Of a DNA stretch of 64,000 nucleotides, positions 2,128 through 28,002 are shown in pieces. The stretch comes from a phage: the sequence record PZ445440.1, one strand, 5' to 3'. The notes below the pieces were generated by a model, which had not been told where the DNA came from, searched no databases, and worked only from the letters and a program-made list of their open reading frames with translations. Numbering within the stretch: the first letter of the stretch is position 1; every line of letters begins with the position of its first letter. The translations under genes were made by a program, and so were the position numbers.

Positions 2128-2363
2128 ATGTATTCTCTTCGAATGAAGTCCTCTACATATTTTAACATGTCATCTCTATCAGCAAAATATTCATCTAGTT
2201 CTGCATACATAACAACACCTGGTGCGTACTCACAGGTAACATACATTGTTCCAAAGAAACGAGGAGTTGATTCCTCGTAATTCTCAGTCCATTCAACGAT
2301 ACCAATATAACCGTCACCAATACTAAATTCATGACGATGGATTTCATAATCAGTCTTCGTCAT
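2124..2363 (-). CDS. hypothetical protein (46.1-like position)
   Basis: ORF track 2124..2378; start moved to ATG at 2363 with GAGGA upstream; sits between 46 and 47 as in T4. Confidence 0.55.
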   Translation of the reverse strand: MTKTDYEIHRHEFSIGDGYIGIVEWTENYEESTPRFFGTMYVTCEYAPGVVMYAELDEYFADRDDMLKYVEDFIRREYI

Positions 2364-2607
2364 TATACGCATCCTCAATACACGCTTCAGCCATTTTAAG
2401 AATAGAGCCGGGAGTATCGTTGTCCATTATATTAAAGCTAAATTCAATAGCCCAGTCGGTGCAGACATGAACTGCTTTAACTTCATTGCCTTCAACGCGT
2501 AATGGCTCAATCCAATACTTGATAGTGTTCTCGAATCCATCATCATCTTTAACGTCTATTTCAACTTCAAGCCTGAGTCCAGCATTGTTAAATTCATCTA
2601 AAGTCAT
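2350..2607 (-). CDS. hypothetical protein (46.2-like position)
   Basis: 85 aa ORF, ATG start with GAGG upstream; stop abuts gene 47. Confidence 0.6.
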   Translation of the reverse strand: MTLDEFNNAGLRLEVEIDVKDDDGFENTIKYWIEPLRVEGNEVKAVHVCTDWAIEFSFNIMDNDTPGSILKMAEACIEDAYNDED

Positions 2608-3623
2608 TGTGTTGCCTCAATATAAAGTTCGTTGGAATATTTGACCAGCGCTTCTCTGTCTTCGTCTGAGATATCTGGAATCGCGTCAATATATTCTTTA
2701 ATGATATCTTGAAGTGATTTAATCTCGATTTCCTGGTCGTCATCAGATTCAACACTGTTATCAACTTTAGAAACCATACGAAGAGAGTGAACTACTTTTT
2801 CAAGTTCAGATTCAAACTTAGTCAACTCTGAATCAATTTCTGATACTATAACACGTACGGCTAGATTGGTATAATCAGAATAATTGATTTTGCCTTTAAA
2901 CGGATAAGTGATTCGTCGATGCCATGTTGTTTCATTAGGAATAAATTCCATACGTTCAACATCAGTGTCAAATACCCAGAATCCACGAGGATCATTCTCA
3001 TCGCCTGCAGTAAGGGTCCATGGTGTCCCAATATATTTGACGTTAGCAGCTTCAGAGATTGTGTGGAAGTGGCCAGACCAGACTTGTTTATAGGTCTTTA
3101 AGAAATCAGGTTCAAGCCCATGAGACTTCATTCCTTTATAGAAATAAAAACCATTCAGTTCCCAGTGCCCAACACAATACGCTGCAGAAGAAGTCTTGAT
3201 GTGCTCTAAGATTTCACCTGTATTTTCTTCACACATCCATGGAACGATATCAATCAGACATCCGTCAAAATCTACAGTAGTTGGATGCTCGTAAATAGTA
3301 AAGTTTTCAAATTGAGTTAACAATTCAGAAACAGTGTTAGGTGTTATGGTATTCTTAAACGCCATGTCATGATTTCCTATCGTGACATGAACGTGAATGC
3401 CTGCTTTAGAAATCATATCAACGATTTCACGATTGAATTCCATTGTACGATGTGTTATTGCTTTACGGACGTCAAACCAATCACCGTACTGAATCCAAGT
3501 TTTAATCCCGTGTTTCTTAGAGTATTCAATTGCTTGACGAATACCATCACGTTGAATATCTTGAACCCATGGGTCGTCTTGTTTGACTCCGATATGGAAG
3601 TCGCCTAAGTGCAAAATTTTCAT
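2604..3623 (-). CDS. 47: recombination endonuclease subunit gp47 (Mre11/SbcD-like phosphoesterase)
   Basis: 339 aa; MKILHLGDFH... and GNHD phosphoesterase motifs matching recalled T4 gp47. Confidence 0.95.
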   Translation of the reverse strand: MKILHLGDFHIGVKQDDPWVQDIQRDGIRQAIEYSKKHGIKTWIQYGDWFDVRKAITHRTMEFNREIVDMISKAGIHVHVTIGNHDMAFKNTITPNTVSELLTQFENFTIYEHPTTVDFDGCLIDIVPWMCEENTGEILEHIKTSSAAYCVGHWELNGFYFYKGMKSHGLEPDFLKTYKQVWSGHFHTISEAANVKYIGTPWTLTAGDENDPRGFWVFDTDVERMEFIPNETTWHRRITYPFKGKINYSDYTNLAVRVIVSEIDSELTKFESELEKVVHSLRMVSKVDNSVESDDDQEIEIKSLQDIIKEYIDAIPDISDEDREALVKYSNELYIEATQ

Positions 3624-3663
3624 ATTATTTCCTCATTAGTTAATTCATTCTATCATCCGTTTA

Positions 3664-3692
3664 TAAAGCAAAAAAGGAACTCCGAAGAGTTC
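3664..3692 (-). terminator. intrinsic terminator hairpin (GGAACTCTTCGGAGTTCC + T-run)
   Basis: Perfect stem with T-run on minus strand just downstream of small ORF 3692..3865. Confidence 0.45.
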
Positions 3693-3865
3693 CTATCCAC
3701 ATAGTACACCGTACAGAGGCTCATTTGAACTTTTAAATCGAATGGGCTTGTATGTAATAGTTCCTTCGGCTTTAGCTTTATCATAAGACTCTTTAAAACG
3801 TCTCATTCTTTCTGCTTTGCCTTTACGGATTTTATCGAAATTTTCAGAAGTCGGGATGTTCGTCA
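3692..3865 (-). CDS. small hypothetical protein (57 aa)
   Basis: ORF below track threshold; ATG with GAGAGGTG upstream; followed by terminator hairpin. Confidence 0.4.
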
Positions 3866-4086
3866 TGCATAAGCACCTCTCAGAAAATGCCTAAATCAAT
3901 TTCTCTCATCGTTTCCACCATTTCTTAACTTGAAATGAATCGACCCACACGAGTTGTTTTGGGTCTGCCTTTACAATAGGCGGACAAATTTCTGTAATAG
4001 AACCGTCGTGATATTCCTTTTCAGAAATTTTAACACAAAGAGGACCTCCCAATTTAAGGGTGAACCCTGCGTTCAGCTTCAGACGT

Positions 4087-4410
4087 TTAAACTTTATTTG
4101 AACTAGCGCCATTAATGATGTCCTCAATAGCCTGACGAGTAGTAACCCACTGGATTTTAATTAACTTGTCATTGTATGGTTGTCGTAGAATATCCCGAGA
4201 TTTCTTAATAGCATATTCGTAAGCTTCGAAGTTGTTTTGAATTGCTGCTTCTTGAGCATGAGCATAAAGACGGTTTAGTTCAAAACGATTCTTTTTAAGA
4301 ATCTTTTCGGATTTTTTACGTGCTTCAGCTTCATTTTTCTTTTGGATTTCTTGTAGCATTTTAGCTACTGCATCTTCTGCTTCTTTATTTTCAATAATCT
4401 CGGTAGTCAT
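4087..4410 (-). CDS. hypothetical protein (107 aa, helical)
   Basis: ORF track; codon usage consistent with neighbours. Confidence 0.6.
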   Translation of the reverse strand: MTTEIIENKEAEDAVAKMLQEIQKKNEAEARKKSEKILKKNRFELNRLYAHAQEAAIQNNFEAYEYAIKKSRDILRQPYNDKLIKIQWVTTRQAIEDIINGASSNKV

Positions 4411-7635: not shown

Positions 7636-7670
7636 AAACGAGATAAAGAAGACCAGGCGGCACCTGGTCA
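7636..7670 (-). terminator. intrinsic terminator (GACCAGG-tgccg-CCTGGTC + T-rich tract)
   Basis: Hairpin overlapping stop codon of the glutaredoxin-like gene. Confidence 0.5.
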
Positions 7671-7991
7671 ATCTTCTATGATATCAGAGTCATATCCTAA
7701 TGAAATCAAGGACTTTTTAAACTCTGCAATATTCTTTTGTTTCTTATCATTTAAAAATATGACAGGATAACGAATATTAAGTGAAGTGAATCCTGCACGT
7801 TTAGCAAGAGATACGATTAAAGGACGGTCATATTCAATCTTACCATTATTAGTGAGGACTTTATAAAATGTATAAGGAGCATTGAGCTCCTTTAAAAGTT
7901 TTGTAACAGTATAACATCCTGGACAACGTCCAACTTCTTCAGGGATGCCATAAACTTCAATTTTATTCTTTGGGTTCGAGTTTTGTTCCAC
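7668..7991 (-). CDS. nrdH: glutaredoxin-like protein (NrdH-like redoxin, CPGC active site)
   Basis: ORF track 7668..8165; N-terminal 58 codons look non-coding; CxxC motif GRCPGCY after a KIEVYG beta-strand; probable GTG start at 7991 with AAGGAA upstream (alternative ATG at 8039). Confidence 0.55.
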   Translation of the reverse strand: MEQNSNPKNKIEVYGIPEEVGRCPGCYTVTKLLKELNAPYTFYKVLTNNGKIEYDRPLIVSLAKRAGFTSLNIRYPVIFLNDKKQKNIAEFKKSLISLGYDSDIIED

Positions 7992-8274
7992 GAGAAATAA
8001 TTCCTTGATAAGCCCAGTACGGCGGGTTAACAGAATCATCACCAGAATTTTCTTCAGGGAAATAAACCTGAATAACGAATCCGGATTCGTCAAAGGTAAA
8101 ATACACTGTAGGCAGTTCACCAAGCAATTCGGAACGAGCGTTAATTTCTTCGAGGTCTTGCTCACGTCCAGCCCAAAAACTAGGATTTAAACTACATTCG
8201 TAAAAATAATAGTCATTACCGAACATATCAAAACCCTTCCAACTCTCTACCACGTACCGCTCAAAACTAATCAT
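7963..8274 (-). CDS. hypothetical protein (103 aa)
   Basis: ORF track; ATG start. Confidence 0.6.
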   Translation of the reverse strand: MISFERYVVESWKGFDMFGNDYYFYECSLNPSFWAGREQDLEEINARSELLGELPTVYFTFDESGFVIQVYFPEENSGDDSVNPPYWAYQGIISRGTKLEPKE

Positions 8275-8602: not shown

Positions 8603-9073
8603 TTAATCATGTTTCCACACCCCATCGGTATTTGACCAAAGTCGCTGATTATCTGATCCTCGCCACAGCTTTTTAGTCGGAAGATTTTTCTCATACTTCC
8701 CATCAATAATAACATCAACATATTTAAGCATTTCTAGTTGTTTAATATCTTCAAACTTATATCCTGTCCACAACCAAATGCTTTTATTGGGATAAAGATT
8801 TTTTACTGTTTGAGCAATGCGATGAATAACATCTCGGTTATCAGGATAGAGAGGGTCACCTCCGGTTATAGTTAATCCTTCTATATAATCATTATTCAAA
8901 CATTCAATTAATTGTTCTAGTGTTTCACCGGTGAATGGAACACCATTTCTAGCATTCCATGTTGATTTATTATAACACCCTTCACATTTATGCAAACAAC
9001 CTGTAACGAAAAGAACGACCCTGCAACCAGGGCCATTCACAAAATCGCAAGGATAAAATCTATCATAATTCAT
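8603..9073 (-). CDS. nrdG: anaerobic ribonucleotide reductase activating protein NrdG (radical SAM)
   Basis: 156 aa; Cys cluster CLHKCEGCYN; ATGA overlap with nrdD stop; matches recalled T4 NrdG. Confidence 0.92.
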   Translation of the reverse strand: MNYDRFYPCDFVNGPGCRVVLFVTGCLHKCEGCYNKSTWNARNGVPFTGETLEQLIECLNNDYIEGLTITGGDPLYPDNRDVIHRIAQTVKNLYPNKSIWLWTGYKFEDIKQLEMLKYVDVIIDGKYEKNLPTKKLWRGSDNQRLWSNTDGVWKHD

Positions 9074-10887
9074 TGGTGTTTAACCCTATGCATGATTTCT
9101 TTATTTTTGCCTAGATTAAATCCGCGTTCGTTTGGATTTCCCAAATAACCGCATGTTCTTCTTATTGTGTTCATCTTTTTAGGATCAGTTTCTCCGCAAA
9201 CTGAACAAACAAATCCATTTTCAGTAGGAGTCATTTCATGAGTACTTCCGCATGTAAAACATTTATCTACTGGCATATTAACACCAAAATAATCTAAATG
9301 TTGTGCAGCATAATCCCAGACAGCCTCAAGTCCTTTTAAGTTATTTTTCATATCAGGAAGTTCAACATAAGAAATGTGACCACCTGTCGCAATGAAATGA
9401 TATGGCGCTTCACGAGAAATCTTTTCAAACGGAGTAATATTTTCTTCTACTGAAACATGGAAACTATTAGTGTACCAGCCTTTATCGGTAACATCTTTTA
9501 CGCTTCCATATTTTTCTGTATCGAGTTTACAAAAGCGATAACAAAGGTTTTCAGCAGGAGTAGAATATAAACTAAAAGCAAATCCGGTTCTTTCAGTCCA
9601 CTGTTTAAGATGAGCATTCATTTTAGTTAAAATTTCTTGTCCAATATCACGACCGACAAGAATATTCAATTCGTGAATACCGATGTATCCCAAAGACACT
9701 GAACTTCTACCATTTTTAAATAACTCAATTATGTCATCATCAGGTTTAAGACGAACCCCGAATGCACCTTCTTGGTAAAGAATAGGAGCAACAGTAGCTT
9801 TAACTCCTTTTAAGGAACTAATTCTACACATCAAGGCTTCAAAACACAGGTCCATTCGCTCGTCGAACAATTCAGTAAATTTCTGTTCATTGAACTGTGT
9901 TCCAATATAAGAATCTAATGCGATACGAGGAAGATTCAGTGTTACAACACCGAGATTATTACGTCCATCAAGAATTTCATTACCAGTCGAATCTTTCCAT
10001 ACGCTCAAGAAACTACGGCAGCCCATTGGAGAAACTGGAACTGAAGAACCGGTAATAGCTTTATTATTCTTAACCGAAATAATGTCAGGATACATTCTTT
10101 TGCTTGCACATTCTAACGCAAGTTGTTTAATATCATAGTTCGGATCATCTTTATAAAGATTAACACCTTCTTCAACAAACATAACAAGCTTAGGGAAAAT
10201 AGGAGTTATTCCATCACGACCAAGACCTTTAATGCGGTTTTTAAGAATTGCCTTCTGAATCATTCGTTCAGTCCAATCGGTTCCCGTACCAAATGTAATT
10301 GTTACAAAAGGAGTTTGTCCGTTTGAACTAAAGAGAGTATTTACTTCATATTCATAAGCTTGGAATGCGTCATAGACATCTTTTTCTGTTTTAGATTGAG
10401 CATAATTCAGAATGTCTGGTATTTGCCATTTTTCTGCATCTTCAACATGTTTAGCGTATGTGCGTTTAACATAAGGAGAAAGAACTTTATCGACATTCGC
10501 AAATGTAGTTCCGCCATACTGGTGTGAAGCAACTTGCGCGGTAATTTGTGCCATAATTGCAGTAGCAACGCCAATTGATTTAGGAGTTTCAATCTGTGCA
10601 TTACCAAGCTTAAATCCGTTCTCAAGCATTCCTTTTAAATCTACTAAACAGCAATTAGTAAATGGAAGAGCAGGAGAATAATCAATATCATGCATGTGAA
10701 TGATTCCGCTTTCATGCGCATTCATAATAAAAGACGGGACCATATTTTTGGCAATGTGCTTAGACACAATACCAGCCATAAGGTCCCGTTGAGTTGGAAA
10801 AACACGAGAATCTTTATTAGCATTCTCGTTCAAAAGATCTTTATTAGTTTTATGAATTAATCCTTCAATTTCTTTTTCAATTTTCAT
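9070..10887 (-). CDS. nrdD: anaerobic ribonucleoside-triphosphate reductase NrdD (intronless)
   Basis: 605 aa uninterrupted ORF; C-terminal zinc-ribbon cysteines CFTCGS...CSVCG and glycyl radical region TCGYLG. Confidence 0.95.
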   Translation of the reverse strand: MKIEKEIEGLIHKTNKDLLNENANKDSRVFPTQRDLMAGIVSKHIAKNMVPSFIMNAHESGIIHMHDIDYSPALPFTNCCLVDLKGMLENGFKLGNAQIETPKSIGVATAIMAQITAQVASHQYGGTTFANVDKVLSPYVKRTYAKHVEDAEKWQIPDILNYAQSKTEKDVYDAFQAYEYEVNTLFSSNGQTPFVTITFGTGTDWTERMIQKAILKNRIKGLGRDGITPIFPKLVMFVEEGVNLYKDDPNYDIKQLALECASKRMYPDIISVKNNKAITGSSVPVSPMGCRSFLSVWKDSTGNEILDGRNNLGVVTLNLPRIALDSYIGTQFNEQKFTELFDERMDLCFEALMCRISSLKGVKATVAPILYQEGAFGVRLKPDDDIIELFKNGRSSVSLGYIGIHELNILVGRDIGQEILTKMNAHLKQWTERTGFAFSLYSTPAENLCYRFCKLDTEKYGSVKDVTDKGWYTNSFHVSVEENITPFEKISREAPYHFIATGGHISYVELPDMKNNLKGLEAVWDYAAQHLDYFGVNMPVDKCFTCGSTHEMTPTENGFVCSVCGETDPKKMNTIRRTCGYLGNPNERGFNLGKNKEIMHRVKHQ

Positions 10888-24473: not shown

Positions 24474-24932
24474 CTAGATTTTAATCACTGCTTTAGAAGC
24501 TTTTCCTGGTAGTCGTTTACTGTTAATAATAGCCATTCTGCATTGAAGAGTCTTCATTTTGAATGCTGGATTTTCGCGACAAACTGTAAGTCCTAACCAA
24601 AGATTTCCATCGGTTATTTCTAAACGGCCTGGACGGTATTCGACGCCTTCGACAAAATCTTCATCAACGTCCGGACGAGCCGGCATTGATAAAAATTCTG
24701 CAACTTCTTTAACATGATTTTTTACTTTATGAAATAATTCAAAAACGTAATTCTCATCTATTTCTCTCTGGATGGCACGATCTAAGAGATGCTGAGAATA
24801 CTTGATATGAAAGCCTGGTAGTCCAAGAGACTTTGCAGCATCTTTTATACCGGCATTTATTTTGCGGAACTCCGTTTCAAAGATTCGACGGAGTTTATTA
24901 CGGCGGATAAAAACTTCCGAATTGATAGTCAT
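24474..24932 (-). CDS. regB: endoribonuclease RegB
   Basis: ORF track 24474..24956; ATG 24932 (MTINSEVFIRRNKLRR...) near-identical to recalled T4 RegB. Confidence 0.9.
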   Translation of the reverse strand: MTINSEVFIRRNKLRRIFETEFRKINAGIKDAAKSLGLPGFHIKYSQHLLDRAIQREIDENYVFELFHKVKNHVKEVAEFLSMPARPDVDEDFVEGVEYRPGRLEITDGNLWLGLTVCRENPAFKMKTLQCRMAIINSKRLPGKASKAVIKI

Positions 24933-24939
24933 TTTGATT

Positions 24940-24992
24940 TCTCCTCTAGTTGACAAGTCTATAGTAACACAACTAGAGGAGAAGTAAACTAC
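24940..24992 (-). promoter_or_regulatory. early promoter for regB (GTTTAC-17-TACTAT) inside 12-bp inverted repeat that includes the regB SD
   Basis: CTCCTCTAGTTG ... CAACTAGAGGAG arms read in sequence. Confidence 0.5.
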
Positions 24993-24993
24993 T

Positions 24994-25209
24994 TTATTGA
25001 TAAAACGGAGTTAAAGCCCAAGATTCTTTAGATACCATATTGGCGAAATGCCTCATCTCTTCGATTTGGCGACGACGCTGGTCAGCATAGTCTTCTTCGC
25101 CTTCTTCCTTACAATCTTCAAGGTCTTCTTCAAGATACTTTAAGTATTCACTACAAATTTTGTTGACCTTTTCTTGGAAGTCCAATAACCCAGTAATAGT
25201 AGAAGCCAT
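24994..25209 (-). CDS. small acidic hypothetical protein (71 aa)
   Basis: ORF track. Confidence 0.6.
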   Translation of the reverse strand: MASTITGLLDFQEKVNKICSEYLKYLEEDLEDCKEEGEEDYADQRRRQIEEMRHFANMVSKESWALTPFYQ

Positions 25210-25475
25210 TAGTATTTTTCCTCAGGACGAAATACTGCACGACATGCCCACATGCTGGCTTCTTTTAGATGTTGCTTAGCATACTTAAGAGCCTGCACTG
25301 CATCCATATCTTCTTTGGTTTGTTGCTCTGTTTCGTTTTCTTTCAAGATATATGCTTCTTCAATCAGAGCATCAAACAACAATCCAAGACGGACTTCGGC
25401 ATCTTTAATAGCGTTCACTTTACTGATTTTATCATCGGTATGCGGCTTGTAGCCTTTGATGTCTTCAATCGACAT
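25209..25475 (-). CDS. hypothetical protein (88 aa)
   Basis: ORF track 25209..25643; start moved to ATG 25475 with GAGGAAA upstream to avoid long overlap. Confidence 0.55.
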   Translation of the reverse strand: MSIEDIKGYKPHTDDKISKVNAIKDAEVRLGLLFDALIEEAYILKENETEQQTKEDMDAVQALKYAKQHLKEASMWACRAVFRPEEKY

Positions 25476-25689
25476 AAGGAATTTCCTCATCGGTGGCAAG
25501 GTCGTATTCGACCAATTGGATAGGCTCATTAATACCATATCCACGTACAGTGATATCAGTTGTCGGATAGTTTCCAGTAATATCACCCATTCTAAATGAT
25601 TCAATGAATGATTGCTCGCCTGAGCAACTAAACCAGGCGGCAAAACATTTTAAAACATCTTCAGACCCTTCTATAATCAATTTAGCCAT
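25465..25689 (-). CDS. hypothetical protein (74 aa)
   Basis: ORF track; ATG start. Confidence 0.6.
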   Translation of the reverse strand: MAKLIIEGSEDVLKCFAAWFSCSGEQSFIESFRMGDITGNYPTTDITVRGYGINEPIQLVEYDLATDEEIPYVD

Positions 25690-26051
25690 TATAGACTCTC
25701 AGTAAAGGTACGAGCGATAACGTCGCGCTGCTGTTCCGGAGTCAGAGAGTTAAAGCGAACTGCATAACCTGATACACGGATGGTCAGCTGCGGATATTTT
25801 TCTGGATGCTTAACTGCATCTTCCAGAGTTTCGCGACGCAGAACGTTAACGTTCAGGTGTTGACCACCTTCAATTTTAACTTTAGGTTGATGTTCAATTT
25901 CAATTTCACGGGCATTCAAACCGTAGAAAATTTCCGGGTCTACAATAGCGTCTTCTTTAAAAGTCTTAGAGACGATAATCCTGGCTTGAGTACCGTCTTC
26001 AAAATAAATAGTGCCTTTATGTGCACCTTCAAGAATTTGATATGCTTTCAT
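25689..26051 (-). CDS. grcA: autonomous glycyl radical cofactor (GrcA/YfiD-like)
   Basis: 120 aa; C-terminal 65 residues [63 protein letters not shown] identical to my recollection of E. coli GrcA, including RVSGY glycyl radical motif. Confidence 0.85.
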
Positions 26052-26057
26052 ATAACC

Positions 26058-26366
26058 TCAATTAGAAAATAAATTTATCCAAGTTTTTTCTTTAATCAAA
26101 AATGGGTCGGAATTAAACGCCATTAAACTTTGAGTGATTAATCCCTTAAATGGCCCATCAATAAATTCCATTTTGAAATGCGGAATACTAGTCATCAACC
26201 GTGCATTAGGAGCAGTACAAAGAACCTGCTGCCCTGCGAACGGACCTTTAGTCAAACGGTATCGTTTAGGTTTAAAATGGTAAATCTCGTAATTTTCTAC
26301 AAGGGCCCTTTTATTGCATACTGGGCTGTTATAACAATATTCAAAAACTTCAATAGTGGTCATCAT
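26058..26366 (-). CDS. hypothetical protein (102 aa)
   Basis: ORF track. Confidence 0.6.
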   Translation of the reverse strand: MMTTIEVFEYCYNSPVCNKRALVENYEIYHFKPKRYRLTKGPFAGQQVLCTAPNARLMTSIPHFKMEFIDGPFKGLITQSLMAFNSDPFLIKEKTWINLFSN

Positions 26367-26905
26367 TGCATTCCAATCACAAAAAATTGAGGACGAACCG
26401 TTTCACCTGTGTCCGCGTTATGGCTTCGACAACAGTGTTGTATTGTTTTGATATGGATGTCGTAAATCTTATCCATATCAGGAGCTTTAATAGGTTCATC
26501 AATTATATACAAGATACGAGAAAGCGATAATCCACGGAATTTATGACCTTCATTACCGATAAAGCTACGTAACGAATCGTGCCACAGACGGAATCGGATA
26601 TCTTCGTCACTAAAACGAATAAAATCATTTTTGATAGAATCGGCTGAAATTCTCGCATACGCCGAGGTATTAGACAGGACAATTACTGTACCACCGTCAT
26701 AAAGCCAATTAGCCGCAAAATTAATTACTGCGGTAGATTTGCCTGATTGACGTCCACCGTCTATACGAAGCGTACAGTACTGCTTGAGCAAGTCTTCAAT
26801 CGGTGGGACATAACCGTTCTTACAAATTTCTTCTACTCTAGCATCAGAATGGTGTGTAAAAGCATTCATCAGGGATAGATAAGGCCCAGTTAAAAATGTT
26901 CTCAT
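26363..26905 (-). CDS. P-loop NTPase-like protein (GGRQSGKST)
   Basis: ORF track 26363..26941; start moved to ATG 26905; Walker A-like motif. Confidence 0.6.
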   Translation of the reverse strand: MRTFLTGPYLSLMNAFTHHSDARVEEICKNGYVPPIEDLLKQYCTLRIDGGRQSGKSTAVINFAANWLYDGGTVIVLSNTSAYARISADSIKNDFIRFSDEDIRFRLWHDSLRSFIGNEGHKFRGLSLSRILYIIDEPIKAPDMDKIYDIHIKTIQHCCRSHNADTGETVRPQFFVIGMQ

Positions 26906-27057
26906 ATTATTTCTCTTAAGGTTTGGGCCATTCCGTGGCACATGAATTGTCCATTTCTGTATTTACCCATTACCGCACTTGGGCTCGACCTTATTACAGG
27001 TTGGCGGGAATCCCTCATAGAATCATGAGGTCCAGGTTGTTCCCATTTTATTTGAAG

Positions 27058-27083
27058 GTAAATAGGCCTAAGTATAGGCCTAT
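27058..27083 (-). terminator. stem-loop ATAGGCCTA-n5-AGGCCTAT after ipIII
   Basis: Inverted repeat immediately 3-prime of the ipIII stop. Confidence 0.4.
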
Positions 27084-27662
27084 TTAATTACCACGGGCTG
27101 CATTAGCAACGGCGTAAGCGTACTGAACATTAGCGTCTTTAAACGTACCTTTAGAGGTATCTATTTCCGCCTTAAAGCCACCTTTAGCCATAACATCGGC
27201 AAATTCTTTACGGAAAGCCATTGCATCAAGACCTTTCCATGATGATTTATGCTTGGCAAATTCAAGACCGGCGTAGTTGACAGCCTTAGCTAATTTATTA
27301 TCAATAACCCATTTACCTGCTTTAGGCACAAACTTCGGGCCTTTTTGTTTAGAGAACAGTTTTAAATTCCAGCGACGAAGGTCACTGTCGGCTTTAACAA
27401 AAGCTGCGTCTAAGTTACTAGCAACAACATCTTCAATATGAGCAAATTTAAGTCCGTCAACTTCAATATTTAGATCGTTACGCCAGCGTAGTCCTTCCCA
27501 AGCGAAGGCTTTAAAATCAGAAGCTTTTGTGGCTAGATATCGTTCAAGTGGAGCAGTTTTAGGGTCAAAGCCGTTTCCGCCACGATAATTCCACTCGTCC
27601 TTATTAATGCCTTGAGCTTTTCCTGCAAAGGCCTCGGCGATAAATTCTTTATATGTTTTCAT
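27084..27662 (-). CDS. ipIII: internal head protein IPIII (capsid-targeting N-terminus MKTYKEFIAEA)
   Basis: 192 aa; near-identical over most of its length to recalled T4 IPIII. Confidence 0.9.
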   Translation of the reverse strand: MKTYKEFIAEAFAGKAQGINKDEWNYRGGNGFDPKTAPLERYLATKASDFKAFAWEGLRWRNDLNIEVDGLKFAHIEDVVASNLDAAFVKADSDLRRWNLKLFSKQKGPKFVPKAGKWVIDNKLAKAVNYAGLEFAKHKSSWKGLDAMAFRKEFADVMAKGGFKAEIDTSKGTFKDANVQYAYAVANAARGN

Positions 27663-27687
27663 TTTGTTCCTATTGATTTAATTTATG

Positions 27688-28002
27688 TTATTCTTTAGGG
27701 AAGTTTTTAGAGTATGCATCATAAAGTTTATTACCAATACGGCGGAAGACTTTAGCTGCAAAACGGTTTTCAGGGTTTTTAATCATGATTTGCATCATGT
27801 AAGTTCCTGCATCCGAAAGAGCTTCTTCGTAGTACCCATTAATTTCTTTAAGAGTCCTACGTTTACCGCCAGGACCATCAACAGTAATTTTCCATTTACC
27901 AGTAGAAGTGCGGCTCGGTGGTTCAACTTGTTCAATCCAAATATAACCACCTTCAACGCGTTGGTTGGCGGATTCTGCAATAAATTCTTTATACGTTTTC
28001 AT
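27688..28002 (-). CDS. ipII: internal head protein IPII-like (CTS MKTYKEFIAE)
   Basis: 104 aa; CTS N-terminus; position as in T4. Confidence 0.8.
   Translation of the reverse strand: MKTYKEFIAESANQRVEGGYIWIEQVEPPSRTSTGKWKITVDGPGGKRRTLKEINGYYEEALSDAGTYMMQIMIKNPENRFAAKVFRRIGNKLYDAYSKNFPKE

Follow-up and report, generated by a model that had tools for sequence, protein, structure and literature searches.

An old T4-like phage grcA gene with a 3′ half that was probably overwritten by host alleles

Escherichia coli YfiD, also known as GrcA, and Y06I of phage T4 are spare-part proteins of approximately 14 kDa that are radicalized by the pyruvate formate-lyase (PFL) activating enzyme (PFL-AE) and reactivate PFL that has been cleaved by O2. 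PMC8683613, which draws on Wagner et al. 2001 (pmid 11444864), describes them as the only two validated proteins of this kind. The same paper reports that residues 1-60 of YfiD are disordered by nuclear magnetic resonance and help binding and activation, and that residues 61-127 take the fold of PFL residues 693-759. Here, we describe a further gene of this type, a 120-codon open reading frame (ORF) that runs from ATG to TAA at exactly 25689..26051 on the minus strand of a 64,000 nucleotide (nt) stretch of phage DNA (record PZ445440.1; referred to below as the window). Over the 12 kb surrounding the ORF, the window matches the Mosigvirus Escherichia phage ChristianSchoenbein (Bas46) with 100 % identity. 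Sequence and synteny identify the gene as the orthologue, in a Mosigvirus, of T4 vs.6, which encodes Y06I, a phage autonomous glycyl radical cofactor with a function known since 2001. The reading that we favour with considerable confidence is that it represents an old phage grcA, a vs.6 orthologue with a putative spare-part function, whose 3′ half was probably overwritten by host alleles via homologous recombination.

The product has the same two-part architecture as E. coli GrcA/YfiD (P68066; PDB 6OWR; TIGR04365) and the N-terminal halves of the two are collinear homologues, but the phage protein is 7 residues shorter and its gene lies outside the host promoter context, in a phage operon where the stop codon of one gene overlaps the start of the next. 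BLASTP aligned it with E. coli GrcA (127 aa) with 73 identities in 100 positions (E = 3e-52), and these are unevenly distributed: residues 61-120 (EGGQHLNV...RVSGY...TFTESL) are identical at 60 of 60 positions, the first 60 at 18 of 60 (approximately 30 % in a global alignment). An initial annotation of this DNA had recognized a GrcA-type glycyl radical protein with a C-terminal match of 65 residues and a differing N-terminal part. The type of protein, the intact RVSGY motif and the divergent N-terminus are borne out, and the relationship is one of near-identity in DNA rather than distant similarity, but the fully identical segment amounts to 60 residues, with 62 of the last 65 matching. The RVSGY glycyl radical motif (aa 92-96; 25764..25778, minus strand) was located from the sequence itself and from alignments to GrcA and PFL, which equate G95 (codon GGT, 25767..25769, minus strand) with G102 of GrcA and G734 of PFL. 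The sole Pfam domain was Gly_radical (PF01228; aa 60-101; 2e-18, 67.3 bits against a gathering cut-off of 22.2), phrog_1209 matched at 9e-63, and the best match among solved structures was GrcA (PDB 6OWR, 2e-42). Residues 696-759 of PFL (1H16) matched aa 57-120, RVSGY included, at 3e-26, and GrcA, GrcA2/3 and PFL models headed the NCBIfam ranking. The C-terminal domain of PflB and TdcE is the region that the spare protein replaces, but DNA identity to it is only approximately 75 % and the phage protein stands alone rather than forming part of an 85-kDa enzyme.

The closest relative of known function is the T4 vs.6 protein, which is identical at 112 of 120 aa (93 %), is encoded in the same synteny and is annotated as GrcA in RefSeq; the equation of Y06I with vs.6 is based on that annotation and on the presence of one GrcA-like gene per T4-type genome. 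Features of the spare-part class that are found here are a small stand-alone protein of the ~14 kDa type, an N-terminal region of approximately 60 residues followed by a C-terminal glycyl radical domain, collinearity with GrcA from end to end, the RVSGY glycine within a domain like PFL 696-759, and orthology to the experimentally validated T4 Y06I.

At the DNA level, the two halves of the gene have different relatives. When the gene was compared by megablast to 5,426 complete E. coli genomes, all were matched, only phage nt 179-363 aligned, with 97.3 % identity in nearly all of them, and 5,411 of the 5,432 matching records fell in the 95-99 % band. Each genome typically holds 3 places that match the 363-nt query (the median; grcA, pflB and tdcE), but one genome has 22, and 6 of the places are on plasmids. 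In the pairwise alignment with E. coli grcA, identity is approximately 47 % upstream of the junction, and downstream there are 5 mismatches, all of them synonymous. Three of the five are in the last 10 nt (positions 354, 357 and 360); at two of these, the phage bases 354G and 357T are nearly fixed in 12 phages of the genera Tequatrovirus and Mosigvirus. From these mismatches and the ORF overlap there, the last 10 nt (nt 354-363; 25689..25698, minus strand) likely mark the 3′ edge of the host tract. The core of the tract (nt 179-353; 25699..25873, minus strand), which encodes aa 61-118 of the structured glycyl radical domain and appears to be derived from Escherichia, is identical to E. coli grcA at 173 of 175 nt (98.9 %). 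A maximum chi-square scan placed a breakpoint after nt 178 (chi-square 113, 0 of 2000 permutations). The phage-lineage N-terminal half (nt 1-178, codons 1-60 including the first base of codon 60) occupies 25874..26051 on the minus strand. Where the amino acid is the same in phage and host, the same codon is used at 8 of 17 positions in the 5′ half versus 55 of 60 in the 3′ half (Fisher p = 1.7e-4), and GC content is 35 % in the 5′ half, approximately 48 % in the 3′ half and 37.5 % in the window. The gene is a mosaic, with a supported breakpoint, a 3′ tract nearest to Escherichia and a 5′ half nearest to other genera of the Straboviridae. Contamination or an assembly chimera was considered as the source of the junction and ruled out, as the junction is common to 633 independent phage genomes. 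T4 Y06I has the same length, the same position between vs.7 and vs.5, the same junction and an E. coli-type 3′ tract. It differs by eight aa changes, seven of them in the N-terminal half, with R73H in the T4 tract, and the 5′ halves, which are of the Mosigvirus and Tequatrovirus type, respectively, share 88 % DNA identity.

The initial annotation had proposed a recent capture from an enterobacterial host with remodelling of the N-terminus; on this view, the complete gene would have been taken up and its N-terminal 55-60 residues would then have diverged fast or been replaced. The host-identical C-terminal half next to a different N-terminal half would fit this, and the disordered N-terminal 60 residues of YfiD could tolerate change. 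However, a single capture would give equal divergence in both halves, and the synonymous sites shift abruptly at nt 178. The N-terminal half is also AT-rich like the phage genome. Furthermore, an N-terminal motif is conserved across Tequatro-, Mosig-, Jiaoda-, Slopek-, Karam- and Pseudotevenvirus, the 3′ halves of which are 70-89 % identical to any host; as the phage-type N-terminus is found in Jiaoda-, Slopek-, Karam- and Pseudotevenvirus with 3′ halves that are not E. coli-like, it predates the E. coli tract. When the N-terminal halves alone were compared by HHalign (13 phage against 18 host sequences), they matched over 46 collinear columns with 30 % identity (E = 3.7e-6, probability 87 %). 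The N-terminus is, in other words, an old and diverged homologue present in six genera, and we consider capture followed by remodelling very improbable. Instead, the whole gene is best interpreted as an ancient homologue of grcA that has long resided in T4-like phages, with an N-terminal half that is a phage-specific, deeply diverged version of the disordered N-terminus of GrcA that binds cleaved PFL. The N-terminal half is then apparently the old part and the E. coli-type 3′ half the replaced one.

The mechanism that can be proposed for the protein comes from the literature on T4 Y06I and E. coli YfiD and is carried to the Bas46 protein by orthology. O2 would cleave active host PFL at the Gly734 radical and the small protein would bind the cleaved enzyme, with the N-terminal half contributing to this binding as in YfiD and the C-terminal domain (aa 61-120) standing in for the lost PFL C-terminus. 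Host PflA would then place a new radical on G95 and PFL activity would return. The Bas46 protein and YfiD have identical structured halves and, hence, identical surfaces towards PflA and PFL. After host shut-off, the protein may help to keep up the fermentative supply of acetyl-CoA and ATP under micro-oxic, gut-like conditions, alongside the phage NrdD and NrdG. A role in nucleotide metabolism was suggested from the Gly_radical match by Nolan et al. 2006, and with nrdD and nrdG in the same genome the protein might be thought to act there, for example as a spare part for NrdD, or else as a decoy that titrates host PflA. We regard either role as distinctly improbable, since the domain matches GrcA at 100 % and has its counterpart in PFL 696-759 (3e-26) and not in NrdD, GrcA, GrcA2/3 and PFL models top the NCBIfam ranking, and the T4 orthologue reconstitutes cleaved PFL in biochemical work cited in PMC8683613.

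To identify the donor, the tract was compared with grcA from 81 host species. It shares 98.9 % identity with E. coli, 97.7 % with another Escherichia species and no greater than 91 % with the 79 other host species, the next-best genus after Escherichia being at 90.9 %. Synonymous divergence (dS) in the tract is 0.07-0.12 between phage and E. coli, as against 0.40 between E. coli and Citrobacter and 1.1 between E. coli and Salmonella, and these values uphold the earlier view that the C-terminal half is host-derived. The protein sequence of the domain hardly varies among hosts and phages (46 columns are the same in all of 11 sequences), and extreme purifying selection together with codon bias might in principle keep phage and host alike with no transfer of DNA. 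However, hosts with identical or near-identical protein tracts (97-100 %) differ by 8-19 % in DNA, and the tract of phage RB16 encodes the identical 60 aa with only 84 % DNA identity. As hosts with the same protein differ at synonymous sites, and RB16 likewise, the likeness of the tract is not due to protein constraint. The tract is also specifically Escherichia-like: in a neighbour-joining tree of the core tract, the Tequatrovirus and Mosigvirus phages group with E. coli and the other Escherichia species with a bootstrap value of 0.99, and support for phage monophyly is 0.0. Similarity arising without transfer is therefore extremely improbable. The direction of transfer appears to be from host to phage, because the two halves of E. 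coli grcA diverge concordantly from those of other hosts (dS for the 3′ and 5′ halves, respectively, 0.40 and 0.53 with Citrobacter, 1.11 and 0.87 with Salmonella, and 0.78 and 0.85 with Klebsiella), which fits a host gene passed on vertically at the conserved ung-grcA locus. The reverse, in which a T-even phage supplied the 3′ half of grcA to Escherichia, would suit the intermingling of phage tracts and Escherichia alleles in the tree, but has a negligible chance of being correct given this equal divergence at a conserved locus and a tract GC content of 48-50 %, which fits the host and not the 37.5 % of the phage genome.

On this view, nt 179 to approximately nt 353 would be a patch of DNA from Escherichia grcA that entered when the host gene recombined homologously with, or converted, the copy already present in the phage; it ends on both sides at the limits of phage-host homology. 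The patch is common to Tequatrovirus and Mosigvirus and is much younger than the divergence of their genomes. Nucleotides 200-384 of E. coli grcA match 633 phage records at 95-99 %, all from the same junction and including T4T, RB69 and PhAPEC2, the best being OES_C-2 at 98.9 %; an event specific to the phage studied here does not agree with this, the same junction and tract being found in T4 and RB69 also. Among 12 Tequatrovirus and Mosigvirus sequences, the core shows 0-5 differences from E. coli, mostly singletons; one variant common in the phages, 219T, is also what the other Escherichia species has. By their 5′ halves the two genera can be told apart (88-90 % identity between, 96-99 % within), but not by the tract. 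In eight flanking orthologues, dS between T4 and Bas46 is 0.94-2.8, and for vs.6 it is 0.29 over the whole gene, 0.49 in the 5′ half and 0.15 in the 3′ tract. By these values, the vs.6 cassette arose long after the split between Tequatrovirus and Mosigvirus, and the tract is the youngest part of it. In JS98 (Dhakavirus; positions 2823-4198 of the sequence examined) and SP18 (Gaprivervirus; positions 2264-3537), the order is vs.4, a small ORF, vs.7 and vs.8, and vs.6 was absent from the syntenic site in the 16 kb of each genome that was read. This absence also points to cassette-like behaviour, with a patchy presence among the T-even genera of E. coli.

A second case was found in phages of Klebsiella. 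The tract was compared with three host alleles of grcA from the Klebsiella pneumoniae complex, which were found by protein search and contig look-ups. The core tract of six Jiaodaviruses shares 91-96 % identity with grcA of the K. pneumoniae complex but 86-88 % with that of E. coli, and its GC content is 52-56 % (host 58 %) versus 37 % in the 5′ halves. The breakpoint lies after nt 180 (chi-square 113, 0 of 1000 permutations), and the 5′ halves are more alike (97-99 %) than the tracts (91-98 %). Of the seven sites that are polymorphic in the host, five vary between the same alleles in the Jiaodaviruses, the Ser/Pro difference at codon 105 being one of them (hypergeometric p = 0.023 for shared polymorphism, approximately 59 synonymous sites). 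At positions 77 and 81, E and K are found in the E. coli phages Bas46, T4 and RB16, as in E. coli GrcA, and L and E in the Klebsiella phages (Jiaodavirus and Matisse), as in Klebsiella GrcA. The K. pneumoniae-type patch in Jiaodavirus would be analogous to the Escherichia patch and is likely a second, independent host-type patch, in which case overwriting has recurred. The Klebsiella representatives in GTDB gave an ambiguous result, the two examined sharing only 86-91 % identity with the Jiaodavirus tracts. No other phage genus has a tract more than 90 % identical to a sampled host.

A broader interpretation is that the spare-part gene is kept matched to the current host, with recurrent homologous recombination overwriting the 3′ half with the host grcA allele and the conserved tract anchoring phage-phage exchange of the vs.6 cassette. 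This may be so, but the chances seem to us evenly divided, and several observations weigh against it or against parts of the favoured interpretation of the gene. A single conversion followed by phage-phage spread and repeated conversions in Tequatrovirus and Mosigvirus are not separable from the data, and the tracts are short (175 nt), making dating and event counts imprecise. The low tract dS could partly reflect selection at the codon level. For Jiaodavirus, the group of JD18 and the K. pneumoniae complex has a bootstrap value of only 0.69, and the host sample comprises only three alleles. The tracts of Slopek-, Pseudoteven-, Karam- and Krischvirus and of T5-like phages are only 70-85 % identical to any sampled host; hence, overwriting is not universal or is old in those genera. 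In addition, a scan of IMG/VR revealed, apart from six Tequatrovirus and Mosigvirus contigs, no phage contig with a tract at least 92 % identical to any of the 81 host species and, thus, recent patches are not demonstrably general. With regard to function, the putative assignment for the Bas46 protein rests on the 93 % identity to T4 Y06I and on the literature. Finally, the score on the bacterial GrcA equivalog model TIGR04365 (spare_glycyl) is 159.1 bits over model positions 23-126, below the cut-off of 170, and E. coli GrcA itself scores 234 bits. The shortfall of 11 bits arises because the N-terminus is divergent and, therefore, the protein was not grouped with the bacterial-type GrcA equivalogs but with the Y06I lineage of phages, which is in the same functional class as GrcA.

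The gene lies in the order vs.8, vs.7, this ORF, a vs.5-like ORF, vs.4, a vs.3-like ORF, regB, vs.1, vs, tk.4 and tk, which is the same as in T4, and its identification as the vs.6/grcA orthologue draws on Pfam, TIGR04365, PHROG and this synteny. The ATG of the downstream vs.5-like ORF (25465..25689) overlaps the TAA stop of the gene, an arrangement that may lead to translational coupling. A scan of 24900..27800 found no promoter-like site on the minus strand, and the two terminator-like matches in this segment are within expectation. The gene is probably co-transcribed with its neighbours and a private promoter is unsupported. The ORF at the vs.5 position encodes 74 aa versus 58 aa in T4, and that at the vs.3 position (24994..25209) 71 aa versus 92 aa. 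With a non-synonymous divergence (dN) from T4 of 0.72-0.78, both amount in effect to non-orthologous replacements beside an unusually conserved vs.6. Two genes downstream, the vs.4 homologue (25209..25475, minus strand) matches the Pfam Acb2/Tad1 hairpin domain (6.5e-18), a family of cyclic-nucleotide sponges that counter CBASS and Thoeris defence.

The other glycyl radical enzyme of the phage is the anaerobic ribonucleotide reductase NrdD (nrdD, 9070..10887, minus strand; Pfam NRDD 1.7e-171, Gly_radical 1.7e-25), which is accompanied by its radical-SAM activase NrdG (nrdG, 8603..9073, minus strand; Pfam Fer4_12 1.1e-48, Radical_SAM 3.8e-8). Although three glycyl-radical functions had been counted initially, and nrdD and nrdG are indeed in the window, there are strictly two glycyl-radical proteins and one activase. 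A scan for CX3CX2C motifs combined with Pfam confirmed nrdG as the sole radical-SAM ORF in the window. A second ORF with the motif (7668..8165) has no Pfam match. The same scan revealed no PFL activase in the window and, for this reason, the protein presumably relies on host PflA.

Homologues were found by tblastn in 1,589 phage records, with one place per record in T4-type genomes. The carriers include Straboviridae of many genera, T5-like Demerecviridae, and Aeromonas and Vibrio phages, and many of the homologues are already annotated as autonomous glycyl radical cofactor, with the name GrcA given to the gene in hundreds of phage genomes. Some copies are irregular: vs.6 is annotated as two coding sequences in phage vB-Eco-KMB39, the copy at locus L118 is an ORF of only 80 codons, and that of OES_C-2 is without two codons (…EIETQP…).

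The GrcA-like gene of the T5-like Demerecviridae (positions 301-669 of the IrisVonRoten locus; also loci L134-L160 and L171) encodes 122 aa and shares 74-76 % DNA identity with any sampled host. In IrisVonRoten, a tRNA-Met gene lies approximately 275 nt upstream of it. The extreme C-terminus of the T5-like proteins (…TREQQNDVISRTFTQAM) is closer to PflB/TdcE than to GrcA, and the gene may represent a separate acquisition. Another set of IMG/VR contigs (L110-L115 and L121; ~30-154 kb) encodes GrcA-like proteins with Pasteurellaceae-type residues (…NPDKY…VITRTFTESL). The best host is mostly Haemophilus or other Pasteurellaceae at 79-84 % (Pantoea for L114), and further host-tracking is possible in these contigs. 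The 19 kb contig IMGVR_UViG_2706794630_000006 has a grcA tract 91 % identical to that of Yersinia artesiana and a host-like N-terminus, and the gene on this prophage-type contig is probably part of the host DNA and not a phage gene.

Neither the gene nor its function is new, and T4-like genomes are routinely annotated with it; the evolutionary mosaic at the DNA level is a modest new addition. In the literature searched, we found no description of the host-allele patch, of its spread over two genera or of the Klebsiella-type patch in Jiaodavirus, though absence there is not proof. A close parallel is psbA of cyanophages, for which intragenic recombination between host and phage, giving mosaic genes with GC shifts within the gene, was reportedly described by Zeidner and co-workers in 2005 and Sullivan and co-workers in 2006. 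There too, an auxiliary metabolic gene in a lytic phage swaps segments with the host allele, but the gene, hosts and phage families are different, and in the present case the patch corresponds to a structural domain and its limits to those of phage-host homology.

One practical consequence concerns detection. A 2026 typing paper chose grcA as the quantitative PCR (qPCR) marker for Straboviridae of E. coli (PMC12845203), and primers placed in nt 179-353 could pick up E. coli DNA, since host grcA shares approximately 99 % identity there; metagenomic reads from this region could likewise be mis-assigned. For the biology of the phages, the findings would mean that strictly lytic T-even phages, which degrade host DNA, still swap segments with a host gene of which they have their own homologue, that the exchange tracks the host genus, and that patch-wise conversion is, besides whole-gene capture, a route by which auxiliary metabolic genes can evolve. 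T4 and E. coli would offer a tractable system for measuring rates of host-to-phage recombination. If recurrent overwriting is true, vs.6/grcA would be a clear enterobacterial example of ongoing gene conversion from host to lytic phage in an auxiliary metabolic gene.

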